A stretch of 64,000 nt of DNA from Antedon mediterranea (GCF_964355755.1 NC_092677.1:9260101-9324100), one strand, 5' to 3'. Positions 33,101 to 59,651 are shown, numbered from the stretch's first letter. A program made the numbers and translations. Notes: generated from the sequence alone by a model not told the origin.

Positions 33101-36100
33101 CATATAAAATGTCATTTTTATACAGTTATTCTGCACATGCACACATGTTCCTGACTATGCGCATAATAATTGTCAGACGAATTAGTAGTATTTATGGATG
33201 TTGCTAAAACAGTCCTGCTGTTCAAACTACTGTTCATTTCTTTAAAAAATTCTTCATACATTTATTTATACCACATAATTATACATTTTATAGATCTTTT
33301 TAAATCTTTATTACAACATAGGAGGACCTACAGAAAGAGATTGGGCATCTAAAAAAACAATTAGAGCATAACCCAACCGTTGCAAAGTTTGCAATGGAGA
33401 ACTCGCACTTACGATCAGAATTGAAAGCCCTACAGGCATCAGGTGCTGTTTTAAGTATAAAAGAAGAAACATTGAAACACAAAGAACGACTACAGAAGCA
33501 GTTTCAAGAGCTTACTAGTGAGATTGATGGTATGTAGTTAACCAGATTATAGTTTTTTTAACCAGGTTATAGTTTTTTAACCAGGTTATAGTTTTTTTAA
33601 CTAGGGTATAGTTTTTTAACCAGGTTATAGTTTTTTAACCAGTGTATTGTTTTTTAACCAGGTTATAGTTTTTTAAACAGGGTATAGTTTTTTAACCAGG
33701 GTATTGTTTTTTTAACCAGGGTATAGTTTTGTAACTAGGTTATAGTTTTTAACCAGGGTATAGTTTTTTAACCAGGTTATAGTTTTTTAACTAGGGTGTA
33801 GTTTTTTAATCGGGGTGTAGTTTTTTTAACCAGGTTATATAGTATTTTAACCAGGTTATAATTTTGTTATTGCATGTTATGCTGTCTTATTTTGTAAACT
33901 TAAGAATGTCATGCTTTTTGGGTTTTTTTTTAAAGAATTAAAGAAGACTGGTAACACACCCTCAAGTGCTACTCAGGGACGAGAAGGCAACACAGCGGTG
34001 GCTACGGTTGAGCGGTTTCGTTCGCAGATAGACAAACTTACCACACAGTTAATTGCAGTAAGTTTAAATTTTGTTTACTTTTGTTTTTATGTGGTTACTT
34101 ATTTCTTCAAGATTGTCATATCTGAGGTGCTGAATCCAAAACAGTTAGGTTAGGTGCCATTTTCATTTTTACATTCTGCTGCTGTTTTAAAATTACTGTA
34201 CTATGTTAAACCATGTGACATCACCAACCACTGAAATGTAACCACCAAAGCCTTTTTCCCACTAGCTAATCGCAAATTCCTGAGTTATAATTGGTTGCAC
34301 ATTGTTCCAGGTTACAAAAATAAGATGAACATATAATATGCATGTGCAATCAATTTGTCTAGTGGAAAACTGCCTTAACAGAAAGTCAAATTGCATCATT
34401 ATGCTCATCATTAGTTGGTCAATTGAAAATTTATTTACTTTGCATTAGGCTAAACAAGAACTTTCGGAACAAGTAGAGCTGCACAAACACAAACAGGTTG
34501 AGTTGGAGTCACAAGTCGCAGCAGAGCGCAAAACCAACAAAGAACTGCAGCATGCTCTCAATGCTATCAAGTTAACCAGCAAGATGGAAAGAGATGAAAT
34601 TAATGATCTACACTTGCAAACTATTAAGGTGAGTCTTCATAATACTGCTGTCATAACACTAGAATGTCTGTTTCTACCATAATATGATGGAATATGATGA
34701 TATACAACGTTTTCAAATCAGCTTAGGAGTACAATAAAGTATGATTAACCCAGGAGCGGTTGCAGGATTTTGAGATGGGGGTGGGGGCATGACACGCTGA
34801 GTCACAGCCACAGCGCCCCCCCCCCCCCATGCCATAAACATGTGCAAACCTACATATTACTTTGACATCGCAGGCATGGGGTTTAGCGCCTAGTCAGCAC
34901 ACTGAGTGCGTTGGACTGTTTGACCAATTGTCAATAAAAATGATTACTGAAGTATTGGTTTTCATCAAATTATAAGTACATTTATAACTATGTGGATTGT
35001 CATAGATGTTTTTTGTTTTGGGGCTGTGGGCATGTCATGGGTGGGATGTTTTCCTCATCCATAAAAAACCCTAACTACGAGCATCTGGATGGTAGATGGT
35101 ATTATAAAGCTTCCACTAAGGATCAATTATCATACCTATTTTTCAGACAATTACTACACCCAAGAAAGCTAGCTACCACTTGAGATCTAGATTGATAATG
35201 CAAGCTAAAGACAACACGCCAGGTGTACCAGAGTTTAACTTAGAAGAAGATGGTGGGATATTAGGAGAGAAAATGCCTGACCACATGGTGGAACAGTGCA
35301 ATGAGGCATTGACGGATGAAGTTAAGAAATTACAGGTAAAATATTTGAAAGTGACTAACAGAGCAATGGCTCTGTCAACACAACATGTTTCTTTTTCCCC
35401 CATCAGCACATGAGACCATGTTCTTAGTTTTCTATGCCAATAACACAAAAAGAATTAAACAGCACAGTTGACCTTGTCAATAGAAAATAAGACAGACACA
35501 CTGTTGACCTTGTTGATAGGAATTTCATGCACGTTTGAAAGTCCTGATAGCCATCACACAAAATAATGACTATCGGCATGTCTATGCTGATAGAATCTAT
35601 CACTACATTACATAAGACCGTGCCTATAGACTACTTTAAATTATACATTCTTTTATTACTTATATATGTAATGCATTCAGTTAATATTAATTATTCAACG
35701 GTTGTTGTTGCAATTTCTTTCAGAATAAAAACAATGAATTATTACAACTACTTGAAAAAACAGACACAGAATGCTTCAACTTAAAACAAACAGTTTCACA
35801 AACAGAGCAACTTAACCAGGTGAGATAAGAGAATCATTTTGTAAAAATAAATTTGAAATACCTTTCTTCTAAAACCTATATGGCATAATTTTTTTATAAT
35901 TTTGTTTGTTCTATAGAGGCTTGAACAAGGACGTATTCAACTAACCAATCAAATCAGTTCTCTTACAACACAACTGGAAACTGTAACTAATCAATTCGAA
36001 GGTAGCGCTTTCTATAAAAAAAGTTTCTTATTTCAAGCAATGTGGCCTGTGCATTAATATCTTATCACACATTGAATTGTAACCTAGATACCATATTTAT

Positions 36101-39100
36101 TCGAAAAAAGGGCCCCAGAGCATTTATTGTTCAGTAGGGTTTATAAGAGGAATGCTTATTCGTGGAAGGTGTTTATTTTTTTATTATAATATGGTAACAT
36201 GTATAATCAAATAAATTCTCCCCAAATATGAAAAAATACAAGACAATTAATATCAAAATATGCTTGGTCTATTCTACAAATAGAAATGTGTTATAATTCA
36301 ATACTTTGTGTATATGCATGTGGCGGGGCGTTTAATTGGGGTGAGGGGAGGACGTCTATTCAAAATGATGTTCTATGAGGGTGTTTATTCAAATAATTCA
36401 AATAAATACGGTATATCTAATACCTAATTAATTTTGTCGATAGTTATCAAATATGAATCAGAAGATTTTAAAGTATTATTACCGCTAGCCTACAAAGAAC
36501 TTGATGAAAAGAAGAAAGAATGTGTACGCATTGAGCATCAAGCGGCAGAAGACATGGATCTACTGCAGGTTAAGGTTTGTAATGTGCTTTCCTAAATATC
36601 TGTTCTGTTTGTTACGCAATGTCCAGAATACTATAGACTATATACATTGACTATAGATTCTATGAGAACACTACTTTAAAGCTCAGGTACAGGCATGAAT
36701 TTTAAATATAATATCTGGTTAATTGTACATAAATCAAGTATTTGTAAAAGGAATCAAGACGAAAAAACATAAATTTCCCTTAAAATGGTCAAATACAAAA
36801 TTTGGCAAAATTCTGCTATAAAAACCAGGAAGACTTTTTTTCAGTAGTTAGGTAGTTAACCTAATGTAATAACATTTATGGTGACTCCCTAGAAGGTGAA
36901 AAAGATGGTGGATATACGGTGGATAATTTTTGCTATAGCATGAAAATAAAAATCTGAAGTTGAATAAAAATACCAGAAATGTAATATTCAAGTTATATTA
37001 CCTATATTTAGTCATCTGATAACATTTTTTACCACACCGTTTGTTTTTCATAGCTTTTTAAAATTTCTCTCTATTTACAAAATTTGTGTACAAAAGAATA
37101 GAGATTTTACTGTGTAATTTGAACTATCCCCCCACTGATAAGAAAGTGCTTGTTTTCTACAAGCTCGTGTAACACAAATAAAATCCCAAAAATTATGAAA
37201 CATAGGGGAAACTATAGATCGATAATTATTGGAATGTATGATCAATAGAAATTTTTTGCCCGCACCTGTCCTTTAATTCAAATATTGATCAGAACCTATA
37301 CTGCCCTTTGATACCCAAAAAAGTGTAACCTTAATTTATTATTTAAATTTGTATTTAAAGAGTTTACAACGATTCAGACTTTACAAAAACAATATATTAA
37401 GAAATATAACTATAATAATAACAAAATTTTAAAACACAATTCATTAATTTAACATTCTATGTACTAAGGTAGTAATATTTACAAGATAAAAAATGTGCTC
37501 AAAGGTTTTTACAAAGAAAATTGGTGTCTTCTAAATAGGGAATGATGTGTGTTAAAACAGATATTTCTCCTTGTTTCTTTCACAGAAAAGTGACACCTTA
37601 ATGTCCCAAAGGAGGGGCTCTATGTATTTTTTAGCATAAAATAGAACACCTATTGTAGGAGAGTTATCTTAATAAGGGTGTCCCAAAGGAGAGGCTCTAT
37701 GTATTTTTTAGCATGCAATAGAACACCTATTGTAGGAGCTAACAAGTGTTATCTTAATAAGGGTGTCCCAAAGGAGAGGCTCTATGTATTTTGGAGAATT
37801 CAATAGAACACCTATTGTAGGAGAGTTATCTTAATAAGGGTGTCCCAAAGGAGGGGCTCTATGTATTTTTTAGCATGCAATAGAACACCTATTGTAGGAG
37901 CTAACAAGTGTTATCTTAATAAGGGTGTCCCAAAGGAGAGGCTCTATGTATTTTGGAGAATTCAATAGAACACCTATTGTAGGAGAGTTATCTTAATAAG
38001 GGTGTCCCAAAGGAGGGGCTCTATGTATTTTTTAGCATGCAATAGAACACCTATTGTAGGAGCTAACAAGTGTTATCTTAATAAGGGTGTCCCAAAAAAG
38101 AGGCTCTATGTATTTTGGAGAATTCAATAGAACACCTATTGTAGGACCTAACAAGAGTTATCTTAATAAGGGTGTCCCAAAGGAGAGGCTCTATGTATTT
38201 TGGAGAATTCAATAGAACACCTATTGTAGGAGAGTTATCTTAATAAGGGTGTCCCAAAGGAGAGGCTCTATGTATTTTTTAGCATACAATAGAACACCTA
38301 TTGTAGGACCTGACAAGAGTTATCTTAATAAGGGTGTCCCAAAGGAGGGGCTCTATGTATTTTGGAGAATTCAATAGAACACCTATTGTAGGACCTAACA
38401 AGAGTTATCTTAATAAGGGTGTCCCAAAAAGGAGGGGTTCTATGTATTTTTTAGCATTCAATAGAAAACCTATTATAGGACCTAACAAGTGTTCTTTTCT
38501 CTCTAAAAGTGTCTCCTGAACATGACCTGAATTTACTTGCATGTATGAATGCTTTTCTATTGTAGATTGTAATTGTTCTATATTAATGATTTGTTCACAG
38601 GTTTGCCAAGTTGACCACACTATGATGGCAAAGCAGAGAGAACTAGATGAAGTATATGAACAACTTGACCGATTACAGGTGCAATGAGCTTTGAACTAGT
38701 CTCTCATAATGTTTCTACACTAAGTAGATCTCCTGGCTTGTTGCTATGTCCAATATTATTTTATGGCTGGTTCTGTATTATTACGATTCTGTTTTCAGTG
38801 TTGCATTAAATGTACTGATGTAGTAATCACGTGAAAAATGAACAAAGCACATACATATCGTCACCGTCTTCATGTCAGTATGTTCACAATACAATGATTC
38901 AAAAATGGGTATCACAGGCATTATAATGACAGAGGTTTGCGCCAATGTATAAATTATTAAAGTTGTCTTTTGTAGGATGATAATGTAGCATTGCAAGCAG
39001 AAGTATCTGTGAATGAGCAACAGACTGATAACCTACAAGCACAGTTAAATGAAAAGACTGGACAAAACTTACAGCTTGAGTCCGAGGTTCAGGTAACAAA

Positions 39101-42100
39101 ACTACAGTGCAGTACAGTAAACCTGTAATGTATTTGTATGATATTATTTGAGGAAAAATTCTCTATGAACCCATGGCAGCTACAATGCAGTGCCTAACAT
39201 GAACAACTGAGATTGACCAGTACACTGGGGTAACTACCTACTACTCCAAAAGATGCACTGGATTCTGATGATGTGTACACTGGACCAGTTTTAAGTTCTT
39301 TTCCGAGAAGAGTTGTTCTACCACCAGAACAATGGTTGAGAAGAGCCTTGAACCTGTGCCGATATTATTGCTACAGTTTGCAGTCTTGCTTTAATCGGTG
39401 ACTAATTTTTTGAATTGTGCAACTTTTTCTTTGACAGTCATTGCTTGAAAAACTAGAGTTGGAGATGCAAAAGAGTGGAATGTTGATGAGAGAGATTCAA
39501 AGTGAGGCTTCAGAGCAGCAGAAGCAGTTGGTAGAAGAACTGGAAGAGCTACAGGAAACGGCAAACCATAGGAACAAAGTATGCCAGTCACAGGTATGAT
39601 GCACTAATGATTGTGTTCACATCTGGTAAATAATACAAATGTAAATGTCTGAGAATAAGCTGTCTCTTGCAGTGTAATTTGACTGAATTGCACACACCTG
39701 TGGACGACACATTTTCTTCAAACAGCGCTATAATGTCTATTGATGACTACAAGTGACAAGTATGCCCCTTACTCTTTAAAAAGATGCGTTGGGTTTTTTA
39801 AGGTTCACTAACTTTCAGTGTTTTAGTCACTAATCCGAGAAGTCTTGAGAAGAGCATGTGTCAATTTTAGGCCAAAATAGTAAACTATCTTCAACATTTA
39901 TCTTAGCAGGTCATGTCTTATTAGGCCCCCCCAGTTATTGTCCTACAATTTTTTTTATTCCATCCAGCAAGAACAGCTACAAAAGGCAAGAGAAGAATTG
40001 TGCACAGCACAATCCACCATCACAACTATGCAAAAACGATCAGATGAAGATAAGGTAATTGTGAATTCTATTCTGGATTAGTATTGAAAGCTTGTATAGT
40101 TTTTATTCACTTGCTGAAGTTGTATCCAAATTTTGCTTTCTCTGCAATAAACTGGTTAATTGTTTTTTTCATTAAAATGGGCAAAAGGTGTGAATATAAC
40201 TTTTTTGTAATGAAAAGTTATGAAATTATAAATATAGTAACCATGAACAGGGGGCATTTAAAAAATATGCAACAACAATTATATTGTTTTTCTTTCACAG
40301 GAAGCGGTTTCAAATTTGATGACAACAGTACAGGAATTAAGAGCCGGGAAGCAGAGGTCAGATAGTGACCTTGCATCACTGGAGTCCACTATACAGGATT
40401 TAAAAACTCAAAGTGACGAGTTGAAAACAGTTGAAGAACAACAAACGAGCAATTTGCATAAATTGGAGGAAAATATGATAAAGAAAGAGGAAGAGATACA
40501 ATCACAGAATGCTGCTCATAATATGGAGGTACAATTAAGTTTAAAACAAGCTTTGTCTACACTATCAAATTAGTTTGACAAAAAAAGTGTTATGTGCAAA
40601 TATGGTAGTGATATGCTTAAATACTGTAGTGATATGACATAATCATGTCTATATATGGGCACATCACATTTTTTTGTCACATAAAGTTTGATAGTGTAGA
40701 CAGGGCTTTATATAATGGCAGCCTTAGATGAATGATGTCCCAATATTACAGTATTGTCACAGAGGGGGTAGATACTTAATTATTTTTATATTATTTAAGT
40801 ATTTTGCTGTTCAAAGGAATTAAGCATCTCTTCATACTAGTATTCTAATTTTTTTTTTTAATAGTTGGAGATGTTAAAAGAAGATCTAGATGAGGCTCTA
40901 ATGCAAGCAGACAGTTTGAGGGAAGCGCTGAGTAAACAGACACAGCTAGCAGTATTGGAACAAGAAGAACAGAAAAAGAAACATGAGGAAGTGGTTAGTA
41001 TAACATTACATTTAATAGGGATGCAGCAAGAGAAGCATTGGTGTTAAAACATGTACAGCTCTGTCTACACTATCAAACTTTATGTGATGTGTCCATATAT
41101 GGACATGATGAGGTCGTATCACTACCATATTTGGGCACATCACACTTGTTTGGTCAAACTAGTTTGATAGTGTAGACAGAGCTTAAGGGTGATTATGGGA
41201 AAAAAAAAAAAAGTATTTTCAATGACCCATAGCTTCCTTGTGTGGGTGCTATGTTGAAATTATGCTGGGAGGATAACATGAAAATAAGCGCTACTGTAGT
41301 CTGGGTGGAAAATTTCTGAATGTAGGTATCTCTACCCAACACATATATATGTATATAGAGTATACACCATAAACAATAATAATCCAAATGAGGTATATTT
41401 GGAATAATATGCATAGTAAGATGACACTTTGGTATGTCATTATTGGAGATATATTGTTCCCCTTAAAAAAAAATAGGTTGACTTTGGTTTGATCTTTAAG
41501 TATAAGTCCTGTTGTATCTATATTTTATCCTTTGTGTACTTTTGTTTTAATAATAATATTAATACATATATATAATAGATTCGAAAAAAAGACACTGAAC
41601 TGTCTGAAACAGTGACTATGTATGAAAACAAGCTTAGAAAGATGGAAAGCCAGCAGAAGTCAACAGTGAGTGCAACATCCGAGGTCCAGGCTCAGGCTGA
41701 CCAGCTTCAGACCTGTATAGACGAACAGGCAGCAGAGCTTGTGGTGCTGAGAGACAGCCAAACCAAAGCTAGGGAGCTTATTGAACAGTTTGAATGCAGT
41801 AGAGAAGAAAAAAATAAAGAGATTGACAGCCTTAAGGTATTAAACAGTTTTTTGGGATTTTTTTTTCTAAATCCTTTTCTTTTTTCTTTTTGTATACTCT
41901 CCAATGGCGTAACGTCTATGATCACGCTCACTGACTAAACCCAGGAGCCCTGTAGTTTGAGGGGCCCCAGGGCATGAACAGTCAACTGCAACTACTCCGT
42001 GTTAGAGGTCCCTTAGGAGTGCTAAACCAGGAACCTACGCCACTGATATTCTCTACATAATTATTTGCAACCATATTTAATGTATTGTGATCTATATTAA

Positions 42101-45100
42101 TAATCTAACATGAACTATTACTACCTAATGGTGGCATGGTTGCAGTGAGTGTATATGATAATGTTGATTTCATCTACACAGGTTGAACTAAAAGAAATTG
42201 AATCGTTAAAAATAAAGAATGAAGAATACGAAAATAAATGCCATCAACTACAAATGGAACTGGACGAAACTAATGAACGGTAAAGTTATTTCGTTTTATA
42301 TAATAAACTAAATATTTGCTTGTACAGTATTAATAATATTAATTTAATAAGTTTCAAAATTCTGTTTGTAGGTTGATGGAAATTAGACACTTATCAGAGG
42401 AATTACGAAGTCAGGCAGATCGTGCTAATTATGGATTTGACAGTTCAAACAAGATTAAGGATGAGGTTATTGAAGAGAAATTTGGGCTCTTGAAAGAGTA
42501 AGTGCTGTAAATGCTAGTGTTTTCCACCTCTTGTGTACTGTATGTAAAATAGGAACTGTGGAGTGGAGAATCCCACTTGGACATCTTGTCAGGTGATTAG
42601 ACTGCATGCTAAAAAATTGACTTAGTTATTTTTTATTTTAGAATTGCTGAAATGAAAGAAGTGTTAAACGAAGTTGAAGAAAGTAAAAAACAAATTGCAG
42701 GAGAATTAGAGAGGTAAGAGATGTATACAAATATTTCCTGGGCTTTCATTGTTTTATATACCGTACCACGCAATTTGGCAGTAGGCTAGGAATGAATACA
42801 TAGATTTGATTGGAGTAGGCTTAGCTCCTAGTGGCAGAAAAAAGGCCTGCATTTGATAATATGTAGCTTCAAGATATGTAATACTTTATTCCCAAAGTAT
42901 ACTTTATTTGTTTCTTCATATTTTTACTGGCCGCTAAATTTACTAAATGCTCTCTAAGTCAGCTTGCTACACAATCGTTGCGTCATACGTGTGGCTCTGA
43001 TTGTATTGAAGATAGAGGAAACAGACATCCACAGTTTAGCCGGTCTATAGTTCAAAGGCATGCCGGTATATAGTGTTTAATATACTGTAGATGTCTTTGT
43101 TGACACTACTGTTAGTGTAATTATTAAAAACACCTCAAAGCCTTCAACATTTGCTACAACAGAAGGACAAATAGCAAGTTTAATATGTTGTTAATACTGA
43201 CATTTCTATTTCCACTATAGAACCAGAGCATTGGAATGTACAGCATTCGAGAAGAAAGGGCAGCTGGAATCCAAACTGGAAGAAATAATGGAAGAAAAAT
43301 CTCGACTTGAACAGGTATGTGAATTTGTACCCAGTAACATTCATAGTTTCCATTTTGTTTATATAGTTATTGAGTACTTAAATATATCTGTACTTCATTT
43401 TTCTTTGAATGTGTTAATGATAATGCTATTATAATGAATTTAATTGCCATAAAAATAGGACAAATTCTTAAGCCTTATGTCCACTTCATATTTGTGGTCC
43501 GGAAGTAGTGTTTAGATATCTATATTTAGATACCTCCATTTCTTGATTTCTAAAAGAGAGCATTAAAACTAGTGTACCAATTAGCTAGTCGAGCAAATCA
43601 AGTATTTATTTATCAAGTACTTGCAGAAATATATTATTATTTATTGAAGTAATGCTTCCAAACCATAGGTGATTATCAGGTACAGAAATACATTTTTTAT
43701 TGAACTAATATTTTCAACCATAGGCCATTAAAAGGTTTTTACTGTTAGTCAGAAATAGAATATTTAGAGTACTAGTACTTCCAACAATAGGTTATTATCA
43801 GGTACAGAAATTAATTTTTGATTGAACTAATAGTTTCAACCATAGGCCATTAACAGGTCTTTACCATTAGTCAGAAATAGAATAATTATAGTACTAGTAC
43901 TTCCAACAATAGGTTATTATCGGGTACAGAAATGAATTATTTATTGAGCTGATATTTTCAACTATAGGCCATTATCTTGTCTAGTCAGAAATAGATTATT
44001 AAATCATATATGTTTTTATCAGGTAACATGTATATCGAATTAGTGCTTTCAACCAATTACTAGCTCTAGTCAGAAATAAAACATTTATAGTTCTAGTGAT
44101 ATTATATCGCGAGGTCTAGACATAAGTAGAAATAACTAGTACCTTAGATCACCCTTAGAATACCGCCGTAGAAGAACACTAGATACTTTCTCAACCATAG
44201 GTTATAGTCACTATTAGAATACTTTCGTCCAATATCATTTAATTAAAATATTCAGCAATAGGCCTACTTCCGGTACTTATTTGTGAATGGAATGTTTTGA
44301 CCTTTTTTGTAAATTATACACAGGATGTTGAGAAGACTAGGAAAAGCAATGAAGCCCTGAGGACAGAGAATACGAAGCTCGTAGGCCATCAAAACCTAAA
44401 GCAAAAAATTCAGCATCACATTCAGATTAAAAAAGAAAATAATCATCTGAGAGAGGTAATTGAACAATTGGAAATATAGTAGCACCCCTATTAAGGGGTG
44501 TAACTGCAGCCTACTTATAGGAGGCCCTCTAGAGTTCAGATAGATAAAAAGTAATAAGAGAGAATAAGGGCCTGTTTCTGCTGCAACTGCTCAAAATACG
44601 GTATAAAAATACGGTATAAAATACGGTATTTTTTATACCGTATTTTTTAGTACCCCGTTTCTGCTAACAATACTTCTTGGGTGGTCGTGTTAAATTTCAT
44701 CTTTTTTACCCAAATTGCCATTCATTTATTTGGTCGATAATTAAAAGTCGCAATAAAGGAAGTTTTACGTCTCACTTTCAACAGCCTAGCCCTAGTGATA
44801 GAGATGTTGTGAGAGCACAGAAAACATCGTAATGGGGACAATTAATTCATTCCCTCCCCGAGTTATTGTTTTTTGCAATGTTGTACTGCTTTCGCAGGCT
44901 CTTCAGCTTTGAGTTTACTTGCTTTGGAGAAAAGTCTATTCCATACTCCTGCTTTATTTTTTTAGAAATGTCTTTATAAATGTGGTTGTCCCTTTTATTA
45001 GTTGGCCAGACATTTTAGCTTCCCCACACACATTTATTTAGTAAAACTGTGACGTCTTCGCTCCACATTTTCGCCGAATATATCTATAGGCCTACACGTG

Positions 45101-48100
45101 TGTAAAGCAGCTGACAGCGACAGAAAATAAAAACACGAATGTTGACCTTTTGTCATGTAAAAAAAAAATACGGTATTTTTTATTGTCAGCAGAAACGGGT
45201 ACAAAAAATACGGTATAAATTTGTAAATACCGTATTTTATCCACAAATTTTGTGGGGAAAATACGGTATACAAAATACGGTATATTTTTTATGAGCGCAG
45301 TTTCTGCTGCCAAAAATATACCGTATATATACGGTATTCAAAAAATACCGTATAATATACGGTATTTAGTTGGCAGCAGAAACAGGGCCTAAGACATTTT
45401 TTATGACATAAAGTTTAGAGATAATCATTCTTAAAAGTATCTTTACCATAGGCTCCAATAAGGCTACAAGGTATTTACACATGGTTATTCATGTGATTGT
45501 AATTATAACTTATGACTTGTATTTTTAATTAGTTGAGTTTTACTTCATTGCTGAGAGCTAGCCCTAGGCTTTAGGGTATCATGTTCCCCAGCCCCATGAG
45601 TCAGACCTGTGCTTGTCTGCCTGTACGATGATGATATGATTAGGCCTACATTGTAATGCTAATCTTTGTTTTATTATAGTTTTCACGGTGTTTATTCAAG
45701 TTGCTAATGATACTGTAATTTGTAGAGATACAAGAGATAGTTCAGAGAATAAATAAAGGAACATCAGTATCTACAAAATTTGTAATTTATTTATAATGGA
45801 CGCCTACGGTAACAGTGAAAACTTAGCTGATGAAAACTCAATGAATCTAAGAGAACAGAGTTACAGACGCCCTACAGCTAAGGCCCTGTCAATTAGCATT
45901 GCTACTGAAGTAAAACTGTTGAGTCAAACTCGGAGAAAGGCTCAAGAAGCATCAAGTGAACTAGAGTAGAAGATGTTCCAAGCGACGAATTTGAGATACA
46001 AACTGCATTATGCAAAGCTAAAGCTGCATTAAAGGAATATAGTGATGCTTGGTGCGTATTGAATAAATTGTATGCACAAGATAGAGATGGTATTCATCGC
46101 GAAGATCACCTGGAGAATGAGAACATATATCTCACCATTGCCAACTCCATCCAAGCTAGTATAACAAGTGCTATGGATAAGGCACATGCATTAGCCCTTG
46201 AGTGTCAAGCCTCAAAATCTGCAGCATCAAAGAGTTCATGTCGATCTATTGTTAGCATTAAAGCTCAAGCCGTGGCGAATGCTGCTGCAGCCAACAAAAC
46301 TGCTCAATTTGTTGAAAAAATGGCTAAACAGAAAGCAGACCTTACAGCAAAGGAAGCTGAAATGGAAATTAAGAAAGCAGAAGCAAGGCTTGAAGAAATA
46401 AGGCGGGAAGCACAGCAAAGAACAGAACATGCCAAAGCCGAAGCAGAGTTCAAAGTTTTAGAGGCTAAACCAGCTGCAGCTGTAGAGAATGCACGAGTTG
46501 ATGCAATTCAACAGGAAATTCAGAACGGATATCGAGAAATTATGACCACCCCACACCAAACCTCAAATGATCATGCACTAAGGTTTCGCAACCTAACCAA
46601 ACCTCAACCTCTAATGACACAGACACAAGCAACAACAGCCCAACCAACAATGCCTCAAAATCAATCTAGCAGTACCACAGACTTAAACGCTTTAGCAGAA
46701 GCCTTTTCTTCAGCCTTCAGTATGAACCGCATACCAGCACCAGAGCCACCAATATTCTATGGCGATCCTCTTAAGTACTATGATTGGAACGCATCCTTTA
46801 GATGTTTAATCGAAAATAAAGGAATTTCTAAGGCAGACAGAATTCACTACCTTAAGAGATACATAGGAGGCCCAGCAAAGGAAGTTGTCAGTGGATACTT
46901 TCTGCTACCAGGTGAACATGCTTATGAAAACGCTAAAGCAGTTTTAGAAAAAAGATATGGAAATCCATTTATAGTTTCCGAAGCATTTAGAGACAAATTA
47001 GACAGCTGGCCAAGGATTCAAGCAAGAGATTACAATGGCCTTAGGCGACTCTCTGACTTTCTGAACCAATGCAACATAGCAATGAAGGAAATGAAAGGCT
47101 TGGAAGTTATTAATGACAGCAGAGAAAACCGGAAAATTCTTCAAAAATTACCAGATTGGTTAGTGAATAGATGGCGAAGAAACGCAGTGAGCGCTATGCA
47201 AATCAAGGGTAGTTATCCAACATTCAATGACTTTTCCACATTTTTGACGACCGAAGCTGAAATTGTTTGCGATCCTGTTACCTTAATACCAGAAAATGAA
47301 ACAAAATTCACAGAAAAAAGTTCAAGATATCGAAACCAATCTCAAACGCTAGCCACCAGTATCAGTGGAATGTCATCATGCTTCATGTGTAAAATGAATA
47401 ACCATCACCTAAGTGACTGCAGAGCGTTTGCCAGAAAACCTGAAACCGAAAAACAGCAATACATCAAGCAAAATGGTCTATGCTTCAGCTGCTTACAACA
47501 TGGCCATGTGTCAAGGAACTGTAACCAGAAAAGTATTTGTAAAATTTGCCAAAGGAGACATCCAACAAGTCTCCATGTAAAGGAGAGAGATTCAGCTCAC
47601 GAGATGACTGAAGCACAAATGCAGGTTATCAAGTTACAAGAGACTGTCACTAAGAAAGAGACACTATTGCAGGATTTAGCCACAAAGTATGCTAAGAAAA
47701 ATGATGAGTTAGCAGAAATTAAAGAAGAAAGAGATCTGGTTAAAAGGAAATCAGATGACGAACTTGCTTATATGAACAAACAACTTCAACAGGCTGTAGC
47801 GTCTAATCCACCTAACATTAGTGAACAATTGGCTTTACTACATGCAGAACTTGATGAGACTTATGGACAACAAATTGTTATGATTAAGTCACAGCTGCAG
47901 GAAAGACACCAGAATGAAATGCAAGAATTGAAAAAGAAATGCGAAGAAGATGCTGAAACTAATAACAAAATTAGAGATGCATTAGAACAGAATTTAAAGG
48001 AACTCCAAGACCAATTAGATGAGAAAGAGATGGACTTAGAGGCTTGTCAGAACATCCAAAAAGACTTTGAAGATCAAGTTGCACTTCTTAATAATCACAA

Positions 48101-49671
48101 CAAGGAACTAACAGAGAAAATGGAGAAAGAAGAAGATGTAACTTTGCAACTTCATCGAGAGCTTGATGAAGCTAACCAAGAAATACAGAAGAAAACTTCA
48201 GAGTTAGATGAAAGAGTTACCCAGTTTATTGATGAAAAAGAAAGATTGGAAAATGAATATCGGAAAAGGTTTGAAGATGAAAGTGCCCATCAAGAAGATA
48301 TCCATCGCATTGCATTAAACCAACAGCGTTCTGAAGTTGTTGCTGAAATTGATCGCAAAATGAAACCCAAAGTAGAAGAAGTTGAAGACCATTTCAAGGT
48401 TCAATTCTGTACTGAAAAATCGGACAAAGAGAACGAATTTGTTCAAGAATTCCAGAACATTCGACAGCAGTTAGCAGAATCTCATGCAGAAGAGATTGAA
48501 GCTGTTACAAAGAAAATCACAGATGAATTAACTGAAAAGCATGAGATTATGCTAGAGGAGGAAACGAAAAAGCTCTTCAAAGGAATAAATGATATATCTG
48601 AAGAGAAGGTATCGACGGAGCAGAATCGGAATAAAGATTGGATTGAAAATCAAGGAAAAGAATTAAAGGAACAAATTGTAAATATAAAAGTCGAGCTTCA
48701 ACAAGTGAACGAAAAGAATTCAAAAATACAAACTGTTAACTTATTCTTTATAGTTTTGGTAAATATTGTTAATATACTTCCAGTTTTGCATTGCTTGTGT
48801 TTATTCTGGCAAGGGTGGGAGTTAAGGTTAAATCATAGATGATTTGGGTGGGAGTGCAACTGCAGCCTACTTACGGGAGGCCCTCTAGAGTTCAGATAGA
48901 TAAAAAGTAATAAGAGAGAATAAGACATTTTTTATGACATAAAGTTTAAAGATAATCATTGTTAAAAGTATCTTTACCATAGGCTCCAATAAGGCTACAA
49001 GGTATTTACACATGGTTATTCATGTGATTGTAATTATAACTTATGACTTGTATTTTTAATTAGTGAGTTTTACTTCATTGCTGAGAGCTAGCCCTAGGCT
49101 TTAGGGTATCATGTTCCCCAGCCCCATGAGTCAGACCTGTGCTTGTCTGCCTGTACGATGATGATATGATTAGGCCTACATTGTAATGCTAATCTTTGTT
49201 TTATTATAGTTTTCACGGTGTTTATTCAAGTTGCTAATGATACTGTAATTTGTAGAGATACAAGAGATAGTTCAGAGAATAAATAAAGGAACATCAGTAT
49301 CTACAAAATTTGTAATTTATTTATGATGGACGCCTACGGTAACAAGGGGACACTTTTGGTACCCACAAAGTGTTCCTTTATTTGGGTGTCCACTAAATAG
49401 GAGTGTCCATAGACCATATTGACCACAATTTCAACATATATTTCCCTATATTTGTATCATGGGAAAGTGTCACTTGGGGTGTCCCAAATGAAATATACAC
49501 ATTTTGTTTTATTTCTCTTTTTGGAATGTTTACTTTTCTAACTGTACTTTTATTATTTTACAGGAAGTTGCAAGACTTAACGCCGAGCTCCTGAAGCAAG
49601 ACTTGTTAGACGGCTTCAAACGCAAACGACACTGCAGTCGTAGAGAAGAGCCAGAGTCACATTCGGCATGA
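27150..49671 (+). CDS. KIF15: Kinesin-12 motor KIF15, about 35 exons
   Basis: Start [25 protein letters not shown] (exons 27150-27165, 28511-28526, 28871-29042). Motor motifs [60 protein letters not shown] and DALGGNTK follow. KIF15-type stalk segments [17 protein letters not shown] and [13 protein letters not shown] and the HMMR-like tail [27 protein letters not shown] (44324-44455) are present. Last exon 49564-49671 reads [12 protein letters not shown]...SA*. Confidence 0.95.
27185..28400. repeat. CTAG/TAGGCCTA-rich low-complexity tracts in KIF15 intron 1, interrupted by a TIR element
   Basis: Dense taggcctag/gctagc palindromic words at about 27185-27386 and 28041-28400. Confidence 0.8.
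27387..28040. mobile_element. hAT-like non-autonomous element
   Basis: TIR CAGCCCACGAA(A)TT / AATTCGTGGGCTG with subterminal aggtcggca repeats; ctaggc on both flanks (possible 6-bp TSD, but the flanks are rich in that word). Confidence 0.7.
29762..30099. mobile_element. MITE with TAA TSD
   Basis: taa|TGTACTTGTCAATGGTATGACCC ... GGGTCATACAATTGACAAGTACA|taa. Confidence 0.8.
33536..33862. repeat. ~20-bp minisatellite, about 16 copies, at the start of a KIF15 intron
   Basis: Unit ttaaccaggttatagttttt. Confidence 0.95.
36091..36411. mobile_element. TA-flanked MITE (Tc1/mariner-like)
   Basis: ta|CCATATTTATTCGAA ... CAAATAAATACGG|ta. Confidence 0.65.
36680..37272. mobile_element. TTAA-flanked non-autonomous DNA transposon (Kolobok-like)
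   Basis: ttaa|AGCTCAGGTACAGGCA ... TGCCCGCACCTGTCCT|ttaa, an imperfect TIR. Confidence 0.6.
37590..38520. repeat. Tandem array of 77/85-bp units, about 11 copies
   Basis: gtgtcccaaa recurs at 37678, 37763, 37840, 37925, 38002, 38087, 38172, 38249, 38334 and 38419. Confidence 0.95.
39170..39410 (-). mobile_element. Deu/Nin-like SINE, degraded copy
   Basis: Minus-strand gttctggtggtagaac..ttctcggaaaagaacttaaaac is shared with the copy at 24330-24682; followed by ccagtgcatcttttggagtagtagg..ccccagtgtactgg. Confidence 0.5.
41902..42045. mobile_element. hAT-like MITE with 8-bp TSD
   Basis: atactctc|CAATGGCGTA ... TACGCCACTG|atattctc (TSD with one mismatch). Confidence 0.7.
43655..44040. repeat. 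~122-bp degenerate tandem repeat, about 3 copies
   Basis: ttccaa.cataggt.attatcaggtacagaaat...caaccataggccatta...agtcagaaatagaat recurs near 43658, 43781 and 43903. Confidence 0.75.
44499..45814 (+). repeat. 5' LTR, split by a MITE at 44568-45389
   Basis: tgtaactgcagcctac...gagagaataa [MITE] taagacatt...ggacgcctacggtaaca matches the 3' LTR. Confidence 0.95.
44568..45389. mobile_element. PIF/Harbinger-type MITE, TAA TSD, inserted in the 5' LTR
   Basis: taa|GGGCCTGTTTCTGCTGC ... GCAGCAGAAACAGGGCC|taa. The empty site is visible in the 3' LTR. Many atacggtat/ataccgtat subterminal repeats. Confidence 0.92.
45796..48842 (+). CDS. BEL/Pao Gag fused in frame to an AKAP9/pericentrin-like coiled-coil; one frameshift near 45965
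   Basis: The frame is open from 45960 to 48842. DUF1759-like [19 protein letters not shown] and three knuckles ([41 protein letters not shown]) are followed by about 400 aa of acidic coiled-coil containing [25 protein letters not shown] short upstream ORF from ATG 45796 stops at 45969 in another frame. Confidence 0.85.
48855..49344 (+). repeat. 3' LTR
   Basis: tgcaactgcagcc...cggtaaca followed by TSD agggg; contains AATAAATAAA near 49278. Confidence 0.95.
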
Positions 49672-50876: not shown

Positions 50877-50974
50877 TTAAATAAAAAAAAAAGGCTTTTG
50901 AATTGTATATAGTGCTCAATTAAATGAAACTTATGCTCACTGGTTGCTTGTGTTTTCTCTAACTCATGTTTATA

Positions 50975-51650
50975 TACCATAGATTAACTTGTGTGTACTA
51001 GTGTATATATCCCATAGATGAACTTGTGTGTATACTTGTGTATATCCCATAAATGAACTTGTGTGTATACTTGTGTATATCCCATAAATGAACTTGTGTG
51101 TATACTTGTGTATATCCCATAGATGAACTTGTTGTATACTTGTGTATATCCCATAGATGAACTTGTGTGTACTACTGTATATCCCATAGATGAACTTGTG
51201 TGTACTAGTGTATATCCCATAAATGAACTTGTGTGTACTAGTGTACAGTATATACCATAGATTAACTTGTGTGTACTAGTGTATATACCATAGATTAACT
51301 TGTGTGTACTAGTGTATATCCCATAGATGAACTTGTGTGTACTAGTGTATATCCCATAGATGAACTTGTGTGTACTAGTGTATATCCCATAGATTAACTT
51401 GTGTGTACTAGTGTATATCCCATAGATGAACTTGTGTGTACTAGTGTATATCCCATAGATGAACTTGTGTGTACTAGTGTATATCCCATAGATGAACTTG
51501 TGTGTACTAGTGTATATCCCATAGATGAACTTGTGTGTACTAGTGTATATCCCATAGATGAACTTGTGTGTACTAGTGTATATCCCATAGATGAACTTGT
51601 GTTTACTGTATATCCCATAGATGAACTTGTGTGTACTAGTGTATATCCTA
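50975..51650. repeat. 33-bp minisatellite, about 20 copies
   Basis: Unit cccatagatgaacttgtgtgtactagtgtatat; explains the repetitive ORFs at 50984-51673. Confidence 0.97.
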
Positions 51651-52613
51651 TACAATACAATTTTCATATTTGATATTACTTCCCACGCTCTATTTCTTTG
51701 TGGATGCCCTATTGTCTTTCTTTTATTGCCAACACTACTAGAAATCTTAGATAGTCTGCGGATAACAGTACAGTATCACATCATGAATTCAACTGTATAC
51801 ATTAGTTAATACTGTACTATAGTACAAAATACACAATATTTTTTTTATTGGTTAGGTTTATTATATTAAAAGAAATTCCATTGCATTATAAACAAAACTG
51901 GCCCATGATTATATATCCAATTAAATTTCTTGTTTCTTATTATTGTTTACATTTTTAGCTGAGAAAAGCTAGCATTTATTTCATTCACACAACTCCATAA
52001 TCAATTTTACTTCCATAGTATAGAAAAAGATTGCCAGTGACGCTGGGTACTGTCAGATAGGTATTTGGTACCTTTTGCAACTTAAAAATAATAACAGAAA
52101 TAAGTACAGAAACACAACATTAATGAGACACATGTATAACAGCACCAGTTTACTATATCTCAATCACAAATCTGCTACCAATGGCTGGTTAGTAGAATTC
52201 GTCTTCTTCACACTTTGGATGAATATTAAACATTTTCAACCTGGAATAACCTTCATAGCACAATATTGACTACAAAAACAATGATTGACTATTTACACTG
52301 AATCTCATGAGCGTCTCTGTGTATCCATCTCTACATAGAGTTGCATATATACAGTAGGTGTACAAAATATTGATAGTAGACTAATTGCACAAGTTTCCAT
52401 GATAATGCAAACATTTTAACCTCTTCTGGGAGGAGCTGTTGTCTAGATTTGTATCACTAATCACGCATAAAGCTCTGTCTACACTATAAAACTTTGTGAT
52501 ATGCCCATATATGGGCATGATGATGTCATATCACTACTACCATATTTAGGTACATCACACTTTTTTGTCACATAAAGATAGTGTAGACAGAGCTTTAGTT
52601 GATGTTTGTTCTA

Positions 52614-55600
52614 TTATACTGATGAAGCAACCATTTTGTTCACTTCTGGATTTAGCCAGTCTTGTGTTATATCATCTAAGTGACAGTCAAAATCTTGTAA
52701 GGATAAATAGGCTTTTGATCTTAAAAGACTAGATGTAACAGCTAGACAGGAATCTCCTTCAAGTTCCACACTGTTAAAAAAATAAACAAGATATTTGGCC
52801 TTAAACATTGTGTCTCCATTTTGAGAGACCATTATTCACTAATTTTAAAATACTGTATACTATACTACTGCAGAGCAATGTTCAATAGTTTTGCAGTTGG
52901 TTTGTGGATTTAAAAGCATTATAGTGATAGTGTTCCTACCTGTCCCTTGCTTTCTTCTTCCATTCATTGTTCACCGCTGTATACAGATCAAACACTGGCT
53001 CTTCACAATCCATAGATAGTCTACTGTTATCCATCTAAAAAAACAACACAACCTACATTACAGTGAGCAGTGTGTTGATTTCATTTTTTTTCCAGTCAGA
53101 TATTACCTTGTTTGAAGGGACTGCTGGATTTAGATTTTTCAATTGTAAAGCCCAACCACAGACACCCCTCAAACTAATTTGTTGAACATTTAAATGCAAT
53201 AAGATAAATTAGCTTCAACACTTCATGTCACAATTTTGAGTTCACTCACTCTCAAACCAATATCATAATAAATCCTAGATCCCCCAATACTCTTACTATA
53301 GCTATCTTGCAGAAATGTCTAATACCCTTTTCACAAACAGTAACAAGTTGTAACCAGGTTTGCAAAGTGTGAACACAATTTTCTGGAGATTTCACTAGGG
53401 ACCCTTGTGAAATGTCTGGACACAAACACACTGATGAGAGGCCTGTTTTTGTTCAAATAGCTCTCAACCATGATGTATTCATGTATAAAAAGTGTAATAA
53501 ATCAGGAGATCAAACCTGTTTACAAATTGTTATAAATTGCAACAATTTATGCAGATGTAAAAAAGCTACAAGTTTCTTATTCAACTAGTAAACTAGTTTA
53601 CAATGTCTGGTTGTGTAACTGTATTGAAGATTGAATCAGGAGAAATACACTTACCATAAACAGGCAAGCACCATTACAATTTGTATGCACCTTATCTGCA
53701 ATTCTTGTTGCCACTCCATTTGGTCTATAAGAAAAAACATTTGAATATTTAGGTTATGGAAAATTTTTTGATTTGTATTAAAAAAAAAAAAAGAAACAGG
53801 GCCATGGACGGCCAGCTTGAGGCAGACAAGGCGCTTGCCTCATCTGAAATTTTCCCTAATTCCCCAGCACAGATCGTCATATTTTATGTTAATAATTATA
53901 TTTAAAGCCTCGTCTGTTTTTAACTTTTCGCTCTGGCCACCTTGAGAAATAGAAGTTCTTACTTGTTATCATCAACTCTTTCATTTGCCTGATAGTATCC
54001 TGCTATAACTAGTCCATTCATATTACAGTACTCATCTATCTGTAATATAACAATTGATTTATTATTGTGTTTTTTGTCATTGATTTGGGTTTGCTTCTCT
54101 CCTCACTGTTTCTATTCAAGACAAGAGTGCGGTAATAATAGACCTGGGTGGTGAGGCAATCTAGGTCCTGAGGGTTCAAGGGTGCATCCCTTTGACCATT
54201 GGTGAAGGGTGCATCCCTTTGACCATTGGTGACATATATGTTTTTAATAATAGCATAGCATAGAAAGAAAGAAAAATTGTGATTAGTTAAAATTCTTGCG
54301 TAATATAATTTTCATATACAATATAAAACCCAATTCTATCGAACTGAATGGCTCGATGGTGTAAATGATGAGGCTATATGGGGTGGGGGGGGGGGTGTTG
54401 TGACTCTCTGCTTGACAATTTTTTCATCATTTGCCTAGACTAGAAGGATGGGTTTATGAGGGTCAATTAGCGATGTTTATGTTCGTGTGAGGACCAATCA
54501 CAACGTAGTTGATGTCAATTCTCTATTTTAATAATAAATGGCATGTGTTGTTAATTAGTCTTGACAAAGAAATGAAAATATTTCTTTTTGGCCGTTTCCA
54601 GCAGCTTGTAAGAGGGACCAGTTGTAAATGTATACAGTATTCTTTAAATAATTCTTATTGTGCGGATCGAGGTGACACTGACAGTGATGGTATAACAAAT
54701 TAAATTATTTATACTTAACACGTTCACTGCCACGGCGTATTTATACGTCAAAAATTGCGTGTCGCTACTTGCCAAGACGTAATACTACGTCAAAATCGTA
54801 GCACTTTTGTATTGTATGTAGAATCGCTGGCAGTGGTGATTGGAACAGGAATTATCGCATGGCAGTTTATGAATGATGTACGTAAACGATAATCTAAAAA
54901 TAAATGTCATATGTTTGTTTGTGTTTATTCCCTCATGCATTGAATATGGTTGATACGATGGCGCCCTCACACTCAATATAATCATCTCAAACATGTCATA
55001 AATTGCGCTAATAGTAAATAAAAATAATAAAGGATGAAATGATTCAGTGTGGTTTACTGTTTTTATCTCTCGATGATAGGTTTGACCGATTTTAGCGCGG
55101 AAAATCCCCGACGTATATTTACGTTCCTGGCAAAGTCAATAAAATTGTTGGACCATTGCCAGTGACGTATTTATACGTCTCAACGGTTTTTCCCGCCATC
55201 GTATTTTGAATGACATCATGATAGTCTGTGACCAGATGTTACACTTTCAAACTGTAATTTAATATGTAAACGGGACTTGGCACTGGGACAGAAATTACGG
55301 AAAATGCCTTGGCAGTCAATGTGTTAAAAGAATAAATATTTGTTTATTTCAAAAATTAAAAAAAAGAGGGACCGATCCAAAAAGAGTATACGTAATTAGA
55401 AATATGTCATGATACACAATTCTAGATTTGTATTTGACTAGCCTTTAGACTTAGGCCTATAAGATCACTTCCTCTATACAAACCTCAATGTAGAAACAAA
55501 TCAATTTGATCTCTTACCCGTAGTAACGCTATCTCAAGCATAGGGGCTAGCCCAAGACATTGATGAAACAACGGTACACAGTCGGCAAAATACACATTTT

Positions 55601-55724
55601 TTGCATTTAGTTTCTTTTTATCTGCTAACAATACCCCATTCACTGCACTATGGGGATATTTAGCAGCATGTAGAGCAAGTTTAACGTATGCTTTCACGTC
55701 AACTTTTACATGCAAGTCAGCCAT
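52614..55724 (-). CDS. EMC8: ER membrane protein complex subunit 8/9 (UPF0172), 5 exons
   Basis: Exons 55724-55518, 54039-53963, 53724-53655, 53034-52940 and 52770-52614 splice in frame. Motifs: AYVKLALHAAKYPHSAVNGVLL, DCVPLFH, LAPMLEIAL, IAGYYQANE, LQDFDCHLDDITQDWLNPEVN. Confidence 0.95.
54719..55323. mobile_element. piggyBac-like MITE with TTAA TSD in EMC8 intron 1
   Basis: ttaa|CACGTTCACTGCCA ... TGGCAGTCAATGTG|ttaa, with internal acgtat(a)ttatacgt repeats. Confidence 0.75.
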
Positions 55725-56785
55725 CGTGTTTAAATTGACCCGAATTTGACCCAGAAAGAACTTTATTTTTGAAAGATGAAAATTCACACAAAGAGTAGAA
55801 ACAAACAGTAATTGCAGCACAGTCTCTGTTTATTGCATTTTTATAGAAAGAAACTGGTCAAAATACACTATTTAACAGATCACTTGTTCAGAAAAAAAAT
55901 TAGCTAAAAATGTTGGTACTACTGTACTACGAATCAACACTAATCTAATGTTTGTTAAAAAAACAACTAAAATAGAAATGCGATTACTGCTATATTTGGA
56001 ACTTCATATATTTTATTTTTGTATTTCAAAATTAATTTATATTATATGAACAAATTGATAATAATGCTCACCATACACTGCAAAACAAGCTTATCTAAAA
56101 ATGTATTTTTCTTTTCATGTTTTATTATTATGTTTTATAATATTAATCATAATAATAGTAGTTATATTTTATTATCTTTTGTATTATGTATGTACATCAT
56201 CTGTATATTATATACTGAATTTTATTAATCATAATCATATTATATATATTCAACTTCAACAGTTTATCTATATATTCATGTAAATAAAGTCAATTAGAAT
56301 AATTATACAATGAAGAATCAAAATATATTTAATGAATACAAGCACAACATTTAAAAAGGAACAAACACGTAATATAATACTGTATTTAAAAAATCAAACA
56401 AAGTTTTTCTTCTTTGACTTAGTAAAAGCCAAGTAAGGAACAGAAAGAGCACACAATTATTCCATGCGTAGTACATTTAAAATAAAAGCATTCCTTCGCA
56501 AGGAAATAATATCTATAGCACATCTAACTTCTCTTTGGTAATCTTATCTGTTACATTAGGTTCTCCATGGAATGTTTCATGGTTTTTTCACTATACTGTA
56601 GATAATAATGCATTTCTCTAGTACCATTTAAGAATACCATACTAAAAACAAGCATAAACTCTAGTACTGTAAATAAACAATAAACACATCGAAAAGTAAC
56701 TTTATATCATTAGAGCCACTACATCATGCATAAGCCAACTACTCAATTTGTGGTAAAGGTCATGGATTGGTTACTCTCCCCAAGC

Positions 56786-57520
56786 TTAGTACAGCACTTC
56801 AACACAACACACTTTATAAAACTCTTTAAAGACATTTAATAGATTGACCAATGGGAACATGATAACGGCACCAACAAAAGACCCAATTTGTATTAAAGGT
56901 GACAGATATTGGTTACACCCAAAGTGTATGGTTAGTACAGCACTTCTTCAACACATATCACACTTTATAAAACTCTTCCAAGACATTAAAAACATTGACC
57001 GATGGGAACATGATAACGGCACCAACAAAAGAGTAGACCCAATTTGTATTAAAGGTGACAGATATTGGTTACACCCAAAGTGTATGGTTAGTACAGCACT
57101 TTTTCAACACATATCACACTTTATAAAACTCTTCAAAGACATTAAAAACATTGACCAATGGGAACATGATAACGGCACCAATGAAAGACCCAATTTGTAT
57201 TAAAGGTGACAGATATTGGTTACACCCAAAGTGTATGGTTAGTACAGCACTTTTTCAACACATATCACACTTTATAAAACTCTTCAAAGACATTAAAAAC
57301 ATTGACCAATGGGAACATGATAAAAACGGCACCAATGAAAGACCCAATTTGTATTAAAGGTGACAGATATTGGTTACACCCAAAGTGAATGGTTAGTACA
57401 GTACCTCTTCTACACACACATCCACTCCTTCACATGGGTCTTTATAATACTCTTCAAAGACATTAAAAACATTGACCAATGGGAACATGATAACGGCACC
57501 AACAAAAGACCCAATTTGTG
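56786..57520 (-). repeat. ~150-bp tandem repeat built from the SLC52A CDS end, stop codon and proximal 3' UTR (5 units including the genic one)
   Basis: ttagtacag (reverse complement of CTGTAC-TAA) near 56786, 56932, 57088, 57239 and 57393. Each unit carries QIGSF.GAVIMFPLVNVF-type sequence. Confidence 0.9.
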
Positions 57521-59099: not shown

Positions 59100-59651
59100 C
59101 TTTTCTGGTTAATCTTTTATGTTTCTAAAAGACAAAACAAAATCAATAATCACTAAAGTAAAGATTTTTTCCATTTCAGGTTCAATATTAATCTAGGAAG
59201 AATAGAGTCGGAAATTGTTTAAATAAAGAAAAAATTAGTGCAAGTCGAAATACAATCTACAGTGTAGGTGGGTTATTGGATGTGCGGTTCAAACAGTGGT
59301 AGTAAAATTGAGGCCAATGCTAATGCACTTTCACACCTAGGTGAGAATACAATAAAAAATACAGTAAAATAACCTCAATCAGTAAGTAGATTGAAGTCAG
59401 GTGCAAAGTTGCATTAGCCCCGATTTATTTGTTAAATTTTATTTGTGATTGACCTTTCAAATAATGAATGAGATCTAATTCTAAGCATTAGTTACAACAA
59501 ATTTGGAGTCAAAATACAACACAGGTGAGAAACGGATATAGCGCCCCTAATACTACCATACTACTATACTAGGACTAGTAGGCTAATTCCTCTCTCTATC
59601 GAGACCTCATGTGATGTATACTACTCTACTACTCTAGATAGAGGCTTTCTA

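Follow-up and report, generated by a model that had tools for sequence, protein, structure and literature searches.

A Gag–AKAP9 chimera in a non-autonomous BEL/Pao retrotransposon of the crinoid Antedon mediterranea, likely formed by template switching

Results

Locus and element architecture

The stretch of DNA analysed here, hereafter the window, comprises 64,000 nucleotides of the genome of the crinoid Antedon mediterranea (NC_092677.1:9260101-9324100), and its central feature is a BEL/Pao long terminal repeat (LTR) retrotransposon, the gag gene of which runs in frame into a coiled-coil piece of the host gene AKAP9/pericentrin. The element is located in the final intron of a gene for a kinesin with an HMMR_C tail and is read from the same strand as this gene (Table 1; positions are counted from the first letter of the window). 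The first-pass annotation, made from the sequence alone, had recorded two LTRs of about 98.5% identity, a perfect AGGGG target-site duplication, a BEL Gag with its third knuckle ending near 47576, and no protease, reverse transcriptase (RT), RNase H or integrase. All of this stood: the LTRs are identical at 484 of 490 aligned positions (98.8%; Kimura two-parameter distance 0.012), the same five bases are present on both sides, Gag was recognised by its DUF1759 domain with the knuckle ending at 47576, and a Pfam scan of the element found no family of the four enzymes. As none of these families follows Gag, the element is a non-autonomous derivative rather than an autonomous member of BEL/Pao. 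The Gag was found to be 39% identical to that of a distant, RT-bearing relative (L001). Relatives of gag were sought in metagenome contigs (7 of 71 stretches, only L001 being of usable length), in viral contigs (0 of 26) and in prokaryote contigs (0 of 101). The Cys-His box spacings in the translation match the BEL/Pao set CX2CX3-4HX4C, CX2CX2-4HX4-5C and CX2-4CX3HX4H (PMC554778).

A stop-free frame of 960 codons (45960-48842) spans gag, the captured segment and a 3' tail. The uninterrupted entry of the frame into about 400 amino acids (aa) of coiled coil, as first described, is therefore correct as to the lack of a stop, but not as to its extent, since the capture ends at 48728 and the last approximately 37 codons belong to the element's own 3' end. 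The window copy itself is imperfect: its gag is frameshifted near 45960-45970, because the frame from the upstream ATGs terminates at 45967-9. With this frameshift and an 822-bp miniature inverted-repeat transposable element (MITE), presumably PIF/Harbinger-like, in its 5' LTR, the window copy is a damaged member of its family. The MITE, the frameshift, the read-through tail and the location in the last kinesin intron are all additions to the first-pass annotation. The tail contains a strongly hydrophobic 19-mer that could serve as a tail anchor or a degradation signal; it looks specific to the chimera, because a longer relative of the element, described below, has a small indel at 48749.

Table 1. 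Features of the Gag–AKAP9 element and of the flanking kinesin exons (window coordinates)
Feature	Position	Strand	Basis or remark
Kinesin exon upstream of element	44330-44454 (start approximate)	+	Pfam HMMR_C, E 3.1e-07; spliced to 49564 in X1 and X10
5-bp target-site duplication AGGGG	left 44494-44498, right 49345-49349	+	Identical five bases
BEL/Pao LTR retrotransposon	44499-49344	+	AGGGG on both sides
5' LTR, MITE-interrupted	44499-45814	+	TG...CA ends; pairs with 3' LTR
MITE, 822 bp, in 5' LTR	44568-45389	.	Gap in LTR alignment; GGGCC-type terminal inverted repeats; TAA duplication
LTR-internal 9-mer, candidate self-primer and splice acceptor	45678-45686	+	Reverse complement of 45815-45823
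gag 5' part, out of frame with remainder	45796-45969	+	Three-frame translation; homologous to start of P0001/P0002; ends in stop
Primer-binding-site position	45815-45823	+	Without TGG start; complementary to 45678-45686
BEL/Pao gag	45960-47589	+	DUF1759 46755-47186 (Pfam E 3.6e-13); triple Cys-His box 47379-47576
Captured N-terminal coiled-coil part of host AKAP9/pericentrin	47590-48728	+	Sense, in the host's frame; ~380 codons
5' junction, 16 nt common to host gene and longer element	47590-47605	+	Host contigs from 47590 (X2, X5, X7, X10); element contigs depart after 47605 (X2, X3)
9-nt overlap at in-frame 387-nt internal deletion	48655-48663	+	Contig offsets in X7, X10; not GT..AG bounded
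3' junction, 6 nt common to host gene and element 3' end	48723-48728	+	Host contigs depart after 48728; element contigs rejoin at 48723
Read-through of element's own 3' end	48729-48842	+	Hydrophobic tail ~37 aa; best 19-residue hydropathy 2.4; same in 3/3 RefSeq copies
Polypurine tract	48846-48854	+	Purine-rich run adjoining 3' LTR
3' LTR, uninterrupted	48855-49344	+	TG...CA ends
Last coding exon of kinesin gene	49564-49671	+	AG acceptor, translation, spliced contigs

The captured segment and its donor

A HMMER search with the coiled coil gave five hits in 1.84 billion representatives, namely a sister copy, a sea-cucumber ‘putative AKAP9’, a sea-urchin protein and two further relatives. The profile built from these hits led to AKAP9-like proteins of Asterias and Saccoglossus with a PACT domain near the C-terminus (two PACT-bearing proteins among 2532 scored). 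Alignment to the Asterias protein gave 35% identity over 283 columns (residues 266-539), with a second, weaker collinear block at about 597-672, so that the whole capture corresponds to residues of about 266-670. The captured part scored 108 bits, whereas none of 200 heptad-block shuffles exceeded 39.7 and the reversed sequence reached 26.9. The resemblance to AKAP9 noted in the first-pass annotation was thereby confirmed and, as had been expected, echinoderm and hemichordate AKAP9/pericentrin proteins are the best matches. In the starfish protein (P0012, 4993 aa) PACT occupies residues 4751-4832; the Pfam scan found no PACT domain in the Gag–AKAP9 fusion. Judged by these alignments, the captured sequence came from the N-terminal part of AKAP9/pericentrin, approximately 4000 residues away from PACT. 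Searches for the donor protein of A. mediterranea itself yielded one sequence, a sister copy, among 7984 candidates of 672-2000 aa and none among 5066 of 1776-5000 aa; the Antedon donor may be longer than 5000 aa. A PDB sequence search returned nothing below E 0.1, and for the captured part Pfam returned coiled-coil families, all sub-threshold. An Atlas query gave FAM184A, one further set and an AKAP9 fragment, all at 0.92 and with low recognition, which is a weak lead.

Junctions and the two parents

Contigs from six of the 11 runs listed (X1, X2, X3, X5, X7 and X10) cover the region and derive from two organisms, organism A being, to judge from its share of words, this species and organism B a close relative. 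In four of four runs, host contigs continue as in-frame coding sequence both before 47590 and after 48728. In organism B, a single contig holds both host pieces; it differs from the captured part at 57 of 1074 nt (approximately 95% DNA match) and contains two stretches that the capture lacks, of 18 nt at 47944 and of 387 nt at 48655-48663. Relative to the host gene, the capture thus has two deletions, both of which keep the frame, the loss noted for the capture amounting to 135 codons. The 387-nt skip was considered as an intron and rejected, as the 387 nt are present in the RNA run X10 and lack GT..AG ends. Offsets were identical in X7, a DNA-sized run, and X10, an RNA run, and the capture therefore lies inside one exon; accordingly, the check for captured exon junctions that the first-pass annotation had proposed carried no signal.

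The second parent was found in organism A as a longer relative of the element, whose contigs follow gag to 47605, depart, and return at 48723. In X2 a single contig links position 47605 with 48723, the sequence between not being known, and X3 contigs depart at both points. The ten codons before 48723 in the longer element resemble, as we take it, the C-terminus of a BEL pol. The longer element is likely to be the pol-bearing parent. Host contigs and longer element meet at both junctions, in agreement with the earlier proposal of a host AKAP9/PCNT capture in place of pol.

The overlaps of 16, 9 and 6 nt were derived from contig end points, not from base-level alignment, and would be expected by chance with rough probabilities of 5e-8, 1e-4 and 4e-3 per junction, respectively. 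They represent microsimilarity at the switch points of a host piece that sits between discontinuous element sequences and replaces part of the internal open reading frame (ORF). In LTR-mediated retrocopies of animals, an internal ORF is likewise replaced by a partial host mRNA, and shared sequence was seen at the switch points in 25 of 29 junctions, with a median of 6 bp (Tan et al. 2016, PMC5131818). By this comparison, the short overlaps at our junctions are the template-switch signature of that study.

Copies and expression

A search with the coiled coil retrieved a 1014-aa RefSeq protein of A. mediterranea with 98% identity. Its cluster has three members on separate contigs of 31.7, 36.2 and 28.6 Mb; full 1014-aa frames are annotated at two other loci, and the third member is the window frame from its first internal Met. 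Both junctions and the 3' tail are common to all three, and the chimera therefore multiplied after its formation. Between P0001 and P0002, 16 of 598 Gag residues and six of 379 captured residues differ. With a target-site duplication of its own for the window copy and three members on three contigs, the chimera appears to have undergone further transposition as a non-autonomous element.

The RNA status of X1 and X10 was deduced from the spliced kinesin junction, no run listed being on record as RNA; X5 is probably also an RNA run, with an exon depth of 49.5 versus approximately 3 in the intron. In X1, one contig of 2381 nt spans the capture, with gag at one end and the 3' LTR at the other, and its 12 differences from the window copy indicate that another copy was its source. 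In X5, from a second sample and study, a contig crosses the 5' junction and extends 30 letters past 47590, the minimum for calling a bridge. Contigs carrying the fusion are thus present in RNA runs from two individuals, and the Gag–AKAP9 chimera is multi-copy and transcribed. It should be noted that strand and expression level are not readable from contigs, and that X1 also covers the intron flank (depth 32). Contig depths in X3, which are a hint and not copy numbers, were 25-56 in the unique flank, 300-350 in the capture and 223 at the helper junction.

Selection on the captured part

For the host allele of this species we used the low-depth path in X5, which was assigned to the host because its letters match the gene of organism B. 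At least 21 sites, among the rows listed (40 of 104 and 40 of 119), have both hosts agreeing and the chimera different, 15 of the changes being nonsynonymous and six synonymous; ten further variable sites were classed separately and excluded from the count. The resulting omega is 0.60-0.88, depending on transition weighting, with 95% limits of 0.22-2.76. On this sequence evidence, the changes after capture are consistent with neutrality, with no sign of constraint and low power. Of the 57 differences, about 27-32 seem to be peculiar to organism B, which would place the capture after the split of the two species. That the frame survived two in-frame deletions hints that translation through the region matters. 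Amino acids that drift while the frame stays open point to selection on translation and not on an AKAP9 activity, and the host piece is probably a neutral passenger.

Origin of the chimera and alternative explanations

The explanation that we consider likely is that of a non-autonomous BEL/Pao element in which pol was replaced, in frame, by a piece of host AKAP9/pericentrin, presumably through template switching by RT, and which is copied with the enzymes of an intact relative. In the proposed course of events, a host mRNA would have been co-packaged, and RT would have moved to it at the 16-nt match just past the last knuckle, made the 387-nt jump at the 9-nt match, simultaneously or later, and resumed on the element where the two share 6 nt, close to the end of pol. 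The product would have integrated with all its cis signals (LTRs, primer site and polypurine tract, plus gag), and, as these are retained, a helper's enzymes could copy it further. The supply of pol in trans, already suggested in the first-pass annotation, agrees with the spread to several loci and with a longer relative that could provide it. The host piece would act as a stuffer with a drifting amino acid sequence. Its open frame is probably maintained because ribosomes must traverse the RNA, which would provide Gag in cis and spare the transcript from nonsense-mediated decay, although luck may have had a part. No report of an AKAP9-carrying retrotransposon or of Antedon retrotransposons was found in the literature searched, most subscription journals being outside its coverage.

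Several points weigh against this explanation. Neither the 5' junction nor the two deletions nor any of the 21 substitutions closed the frame, for which the chance is about 1 in 90, or about 1 in 30 after allowing for the fact that the finding was selected by its in-frame junction, so that pure neutrality fits poorly; the wide omega interval still admits moderate constraint, and the 21 sites are those among the rows listed. For the other two copies no duplication of the target site was observed, so that their retrotransposition is inferred. The helper was seen as contig ends only. Finally, loss of introns is not demonstrable for a capture from one exon, and a DNA route would also fit.

Of the alternatives, the one that survives best, though we regard it as unlikely, is that the AKAP9 piece was kept for its own activity, the coiled coil bringing Gag and RNA to the Golgi or microtubule-organising region, or dimerising with host AKAP9, and thereby aiding the element. 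An equally doubtful extension is that a young BEL/Pao family would be advantaged by the combination of Gag, a Golgi-targeting AKAP9 coiled coil and a new hydrophobic tail, which would steer assembly to that region. The frame did survive three frame-sensitive events, the fusion is present in the RNA of two individuals, and the indel in the longer element makes the tail look specific to the chimera; however, T-rich read-through is hydrophobic by composition. In LTR particles, moreover, a fusion downstream of the nucleocapsid would face the inside of the assembled particle. The first coiled coil of human AKAP450 (aa 159-463) binds GM130, targets the Golgi and dimerises (PMC3105543), and the capture overlaps its later part by position. 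Yet the human numbering is mapped by position only, GM130 binding in echinoderms is putative, and the capture begins midway in the first coiled coil and is short of 135 codons. Selection for tethering to the centrosome or Golgi, as the first-pass annotation had imagined it, was not borne out: PACT was not captured, nonsynonymous changes outnumber synonymous ones, and omega is indistinguishable from 1. If true, a fusion selected for its localisation would be a retrotransposon gaining a host targeting module, a counterpart of the Gag-onc fusion.

Slightly less probable still is a capture at the DNA level, in which an already integrated element would have been broken and then mended by copying from the AKAP9 locus, guided by microhomology, before the product transposed. 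A piece from one exon does not require an RNA template. Microhomology is also a mark of DNA end joining. What speaks for template switching by RT, and against the DNA route, is the sense orientation, the exclusively exonic content, the fact that pol was replaced and not interrupted, and a third overlap-marked jump, which together form the RT pattern of PMC5131818; the intron-loss criterion usual in that study is not applicable here, because no exon junction was crossed.

We deem it very improbable that the host is domesticating the fusion into a novel gene, such as a dominant-negative AKAP9 fragment or a restriction factor against the helper. The fusion is transcribed and full frames are annotated at two loci, but the LTRs are intact and young, the copies are dispersed, the window copy is broken and constraint was not seen; furthermore, no contig crossing a chimera junction is among those listed for organism B, although contigs cannot show absence. 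An assembly artefact or a chance resemblance, a natural concern given that coiled coils attract spurious hits and that Atlas scored FAM184A and an AKAP9 fragment equally, is refuted by junctions common to three loci and present in independent runs, by the DNA match to the donor gene and by the shuffle control.

Capture through template switching, with later copying in trans, remains our preferred explanation. The element is of interest as a cleanly preserved natural case in which an animal LTR element captured a gene: the host gene, the longer parent and several chimeric copies are all present side by side, and the junctions and the later changes can be read at the level of single bases. The case also makes testable why frames joining Gag to host sequence remain open.

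A candidate self-primer and splice site in the LTR

A tRNA-type primer-binding site is expected in BEL/Pao elements; TGG is absent directly after the 5' LTR of this one. The nine nucleotides in its place are complementary to a 9-mer inside the LTR, a match reached by 57 of 20000 shuffles, and the region, together with an adjoining stem, has a fold z of -2.36. In L001, an 8-nt complement (254-261 versus 444-451) has the same geometry behind the apparent LTR end, where it is again preceded by a pyrimidine tract and AG; no LTR-end motif was found in L002-L007, and a pattern scan of the seven loci found nothing. The arrangement resembles the self-priming of Tf1 and Tj1, in which the primer site is complementary to the element's own 5' RNA (PMC4600332), in that the 3' end of the candidate primer would abut the LTR end, with a complementarity of 9 nt here and 8 nt in L001.

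At the equivalent place of the 3' LTR, contigs are joined: in X1 a GT..AG joint has a depth of 125.5 and the unspliced 3' LTR contig one of 124.7. The joint is also present in the DNA run X3, the letters between not being known. The segment skipped in the X1 and X3 contigs (49002-49209, 208 nt, GT..AG-bounded) may represent an intron of the LTR, a variant with a short LTR, or both, and the same applies to its counterpart in the 5' LTR.

It is possible, and we propose it tentatively from these motifs, that this BEL/Pao lineage primes reverse transcription from its own, perhaps spliced, 5' RNA. The motif could also be accounted for by a primer derived from a tRNA fragment or by a conserved splice site, and two elements are too few to decide. 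No self-priming in BEL/Pao was found in the literature searched, and the available parts of PMC3601003, PMC12440569 and PMC3118150 hold nothing on BEL/Pao primers. If true, self-priming would reach a third superfamily of LTR elements.

Other features of the window

The kinesin gene around the element, which we take to be KIF15-like, extends over approximately 31190-49671 on the + strand, with a motor-domain exon and the HMMR_C tail, and X1 contains the splice that joins the exons on either side of the element. Short inverted-repeat elements of one family, approximately 130-165 bp long, occur at least six times in the window (40548-41187, 52467-52598, 19107-19247, 31066-31172 and 32913-33028). 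Tandem arrays at 37602-38493, 50967-51676, 56741-57523, 33538-33869 and 43624-44026, with units of approximately 77-85, 33-35, 140-156, 38 and 122 bp, explain several spurious ORFs. Long or gene-like ORFs on the - strand lie at 21853-23883, 55485-55829 and 57813-59108; by eye, we presume these to be a beta-lactamase-fold serine hydrolase, an EMC8/9 exon and a riboflavin transporter, respectively.

Comparison with known systems

As a piece of AKAP9, the capture is comparable to the AKAP450/AKAP9 fragment AK1B (PMC3105543), also an N-terminal coiled coil without PACT, with which it overlaps by position; unlike AK1B, it starts near residue 265 of the starfish protein, misses the first part of the coil, extends further and has two deletions. 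As an element, it shares its LTRs and the spacings of its triple Cys-His box with BEL/Pao (Belpaoviridae) members such as Sinbad (PMC554778), and its relative L001 has protease-like and RT sequences after Gag in one frame. It departs from such members in the lack of protease, RT, RNase H and integrase and in having no TGG after the 5' LTR.

The fusion of Gag with a host gene has a counterpart in the acutely transforming retroviruses, which carry Gag-onc fusions with a truncated host gene, are defective in replication and depend on a helper. In these, too, Gag is in frame with a truncated host gene, whereas the element described here has no env and no infection, and shows no sign of a growth or replication advantage from the host piece. 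The maize element Bs1, to which PMC5131818 refers, is similar as an LTR element without pol that carries fragments of host genes and is still multiplying. It differs as a plant element with pieces of three genes, the present case being an animal BEL/Pao element with one donor.

The architecture, and also the mechanism proposed here, are those of the LTR-mediated retrocopies of PMC5131818, among which are cases of further non-autonomous rounds (CG17604_r and CG10212_r) and one mosquito case flanked by BEL18_AG. Replacement of the ORF, microsimilarity at the switch points, transcription in sense and later non-autonomous rounds are common to both. In contrast to those retrocopies, the chimera of A. 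mediterranea retains the whole Gag in frame with the host piece, both of its parents are traceable, its host is a crinoid, and its frame is still open in a lineage that has aged by approximately 2%.

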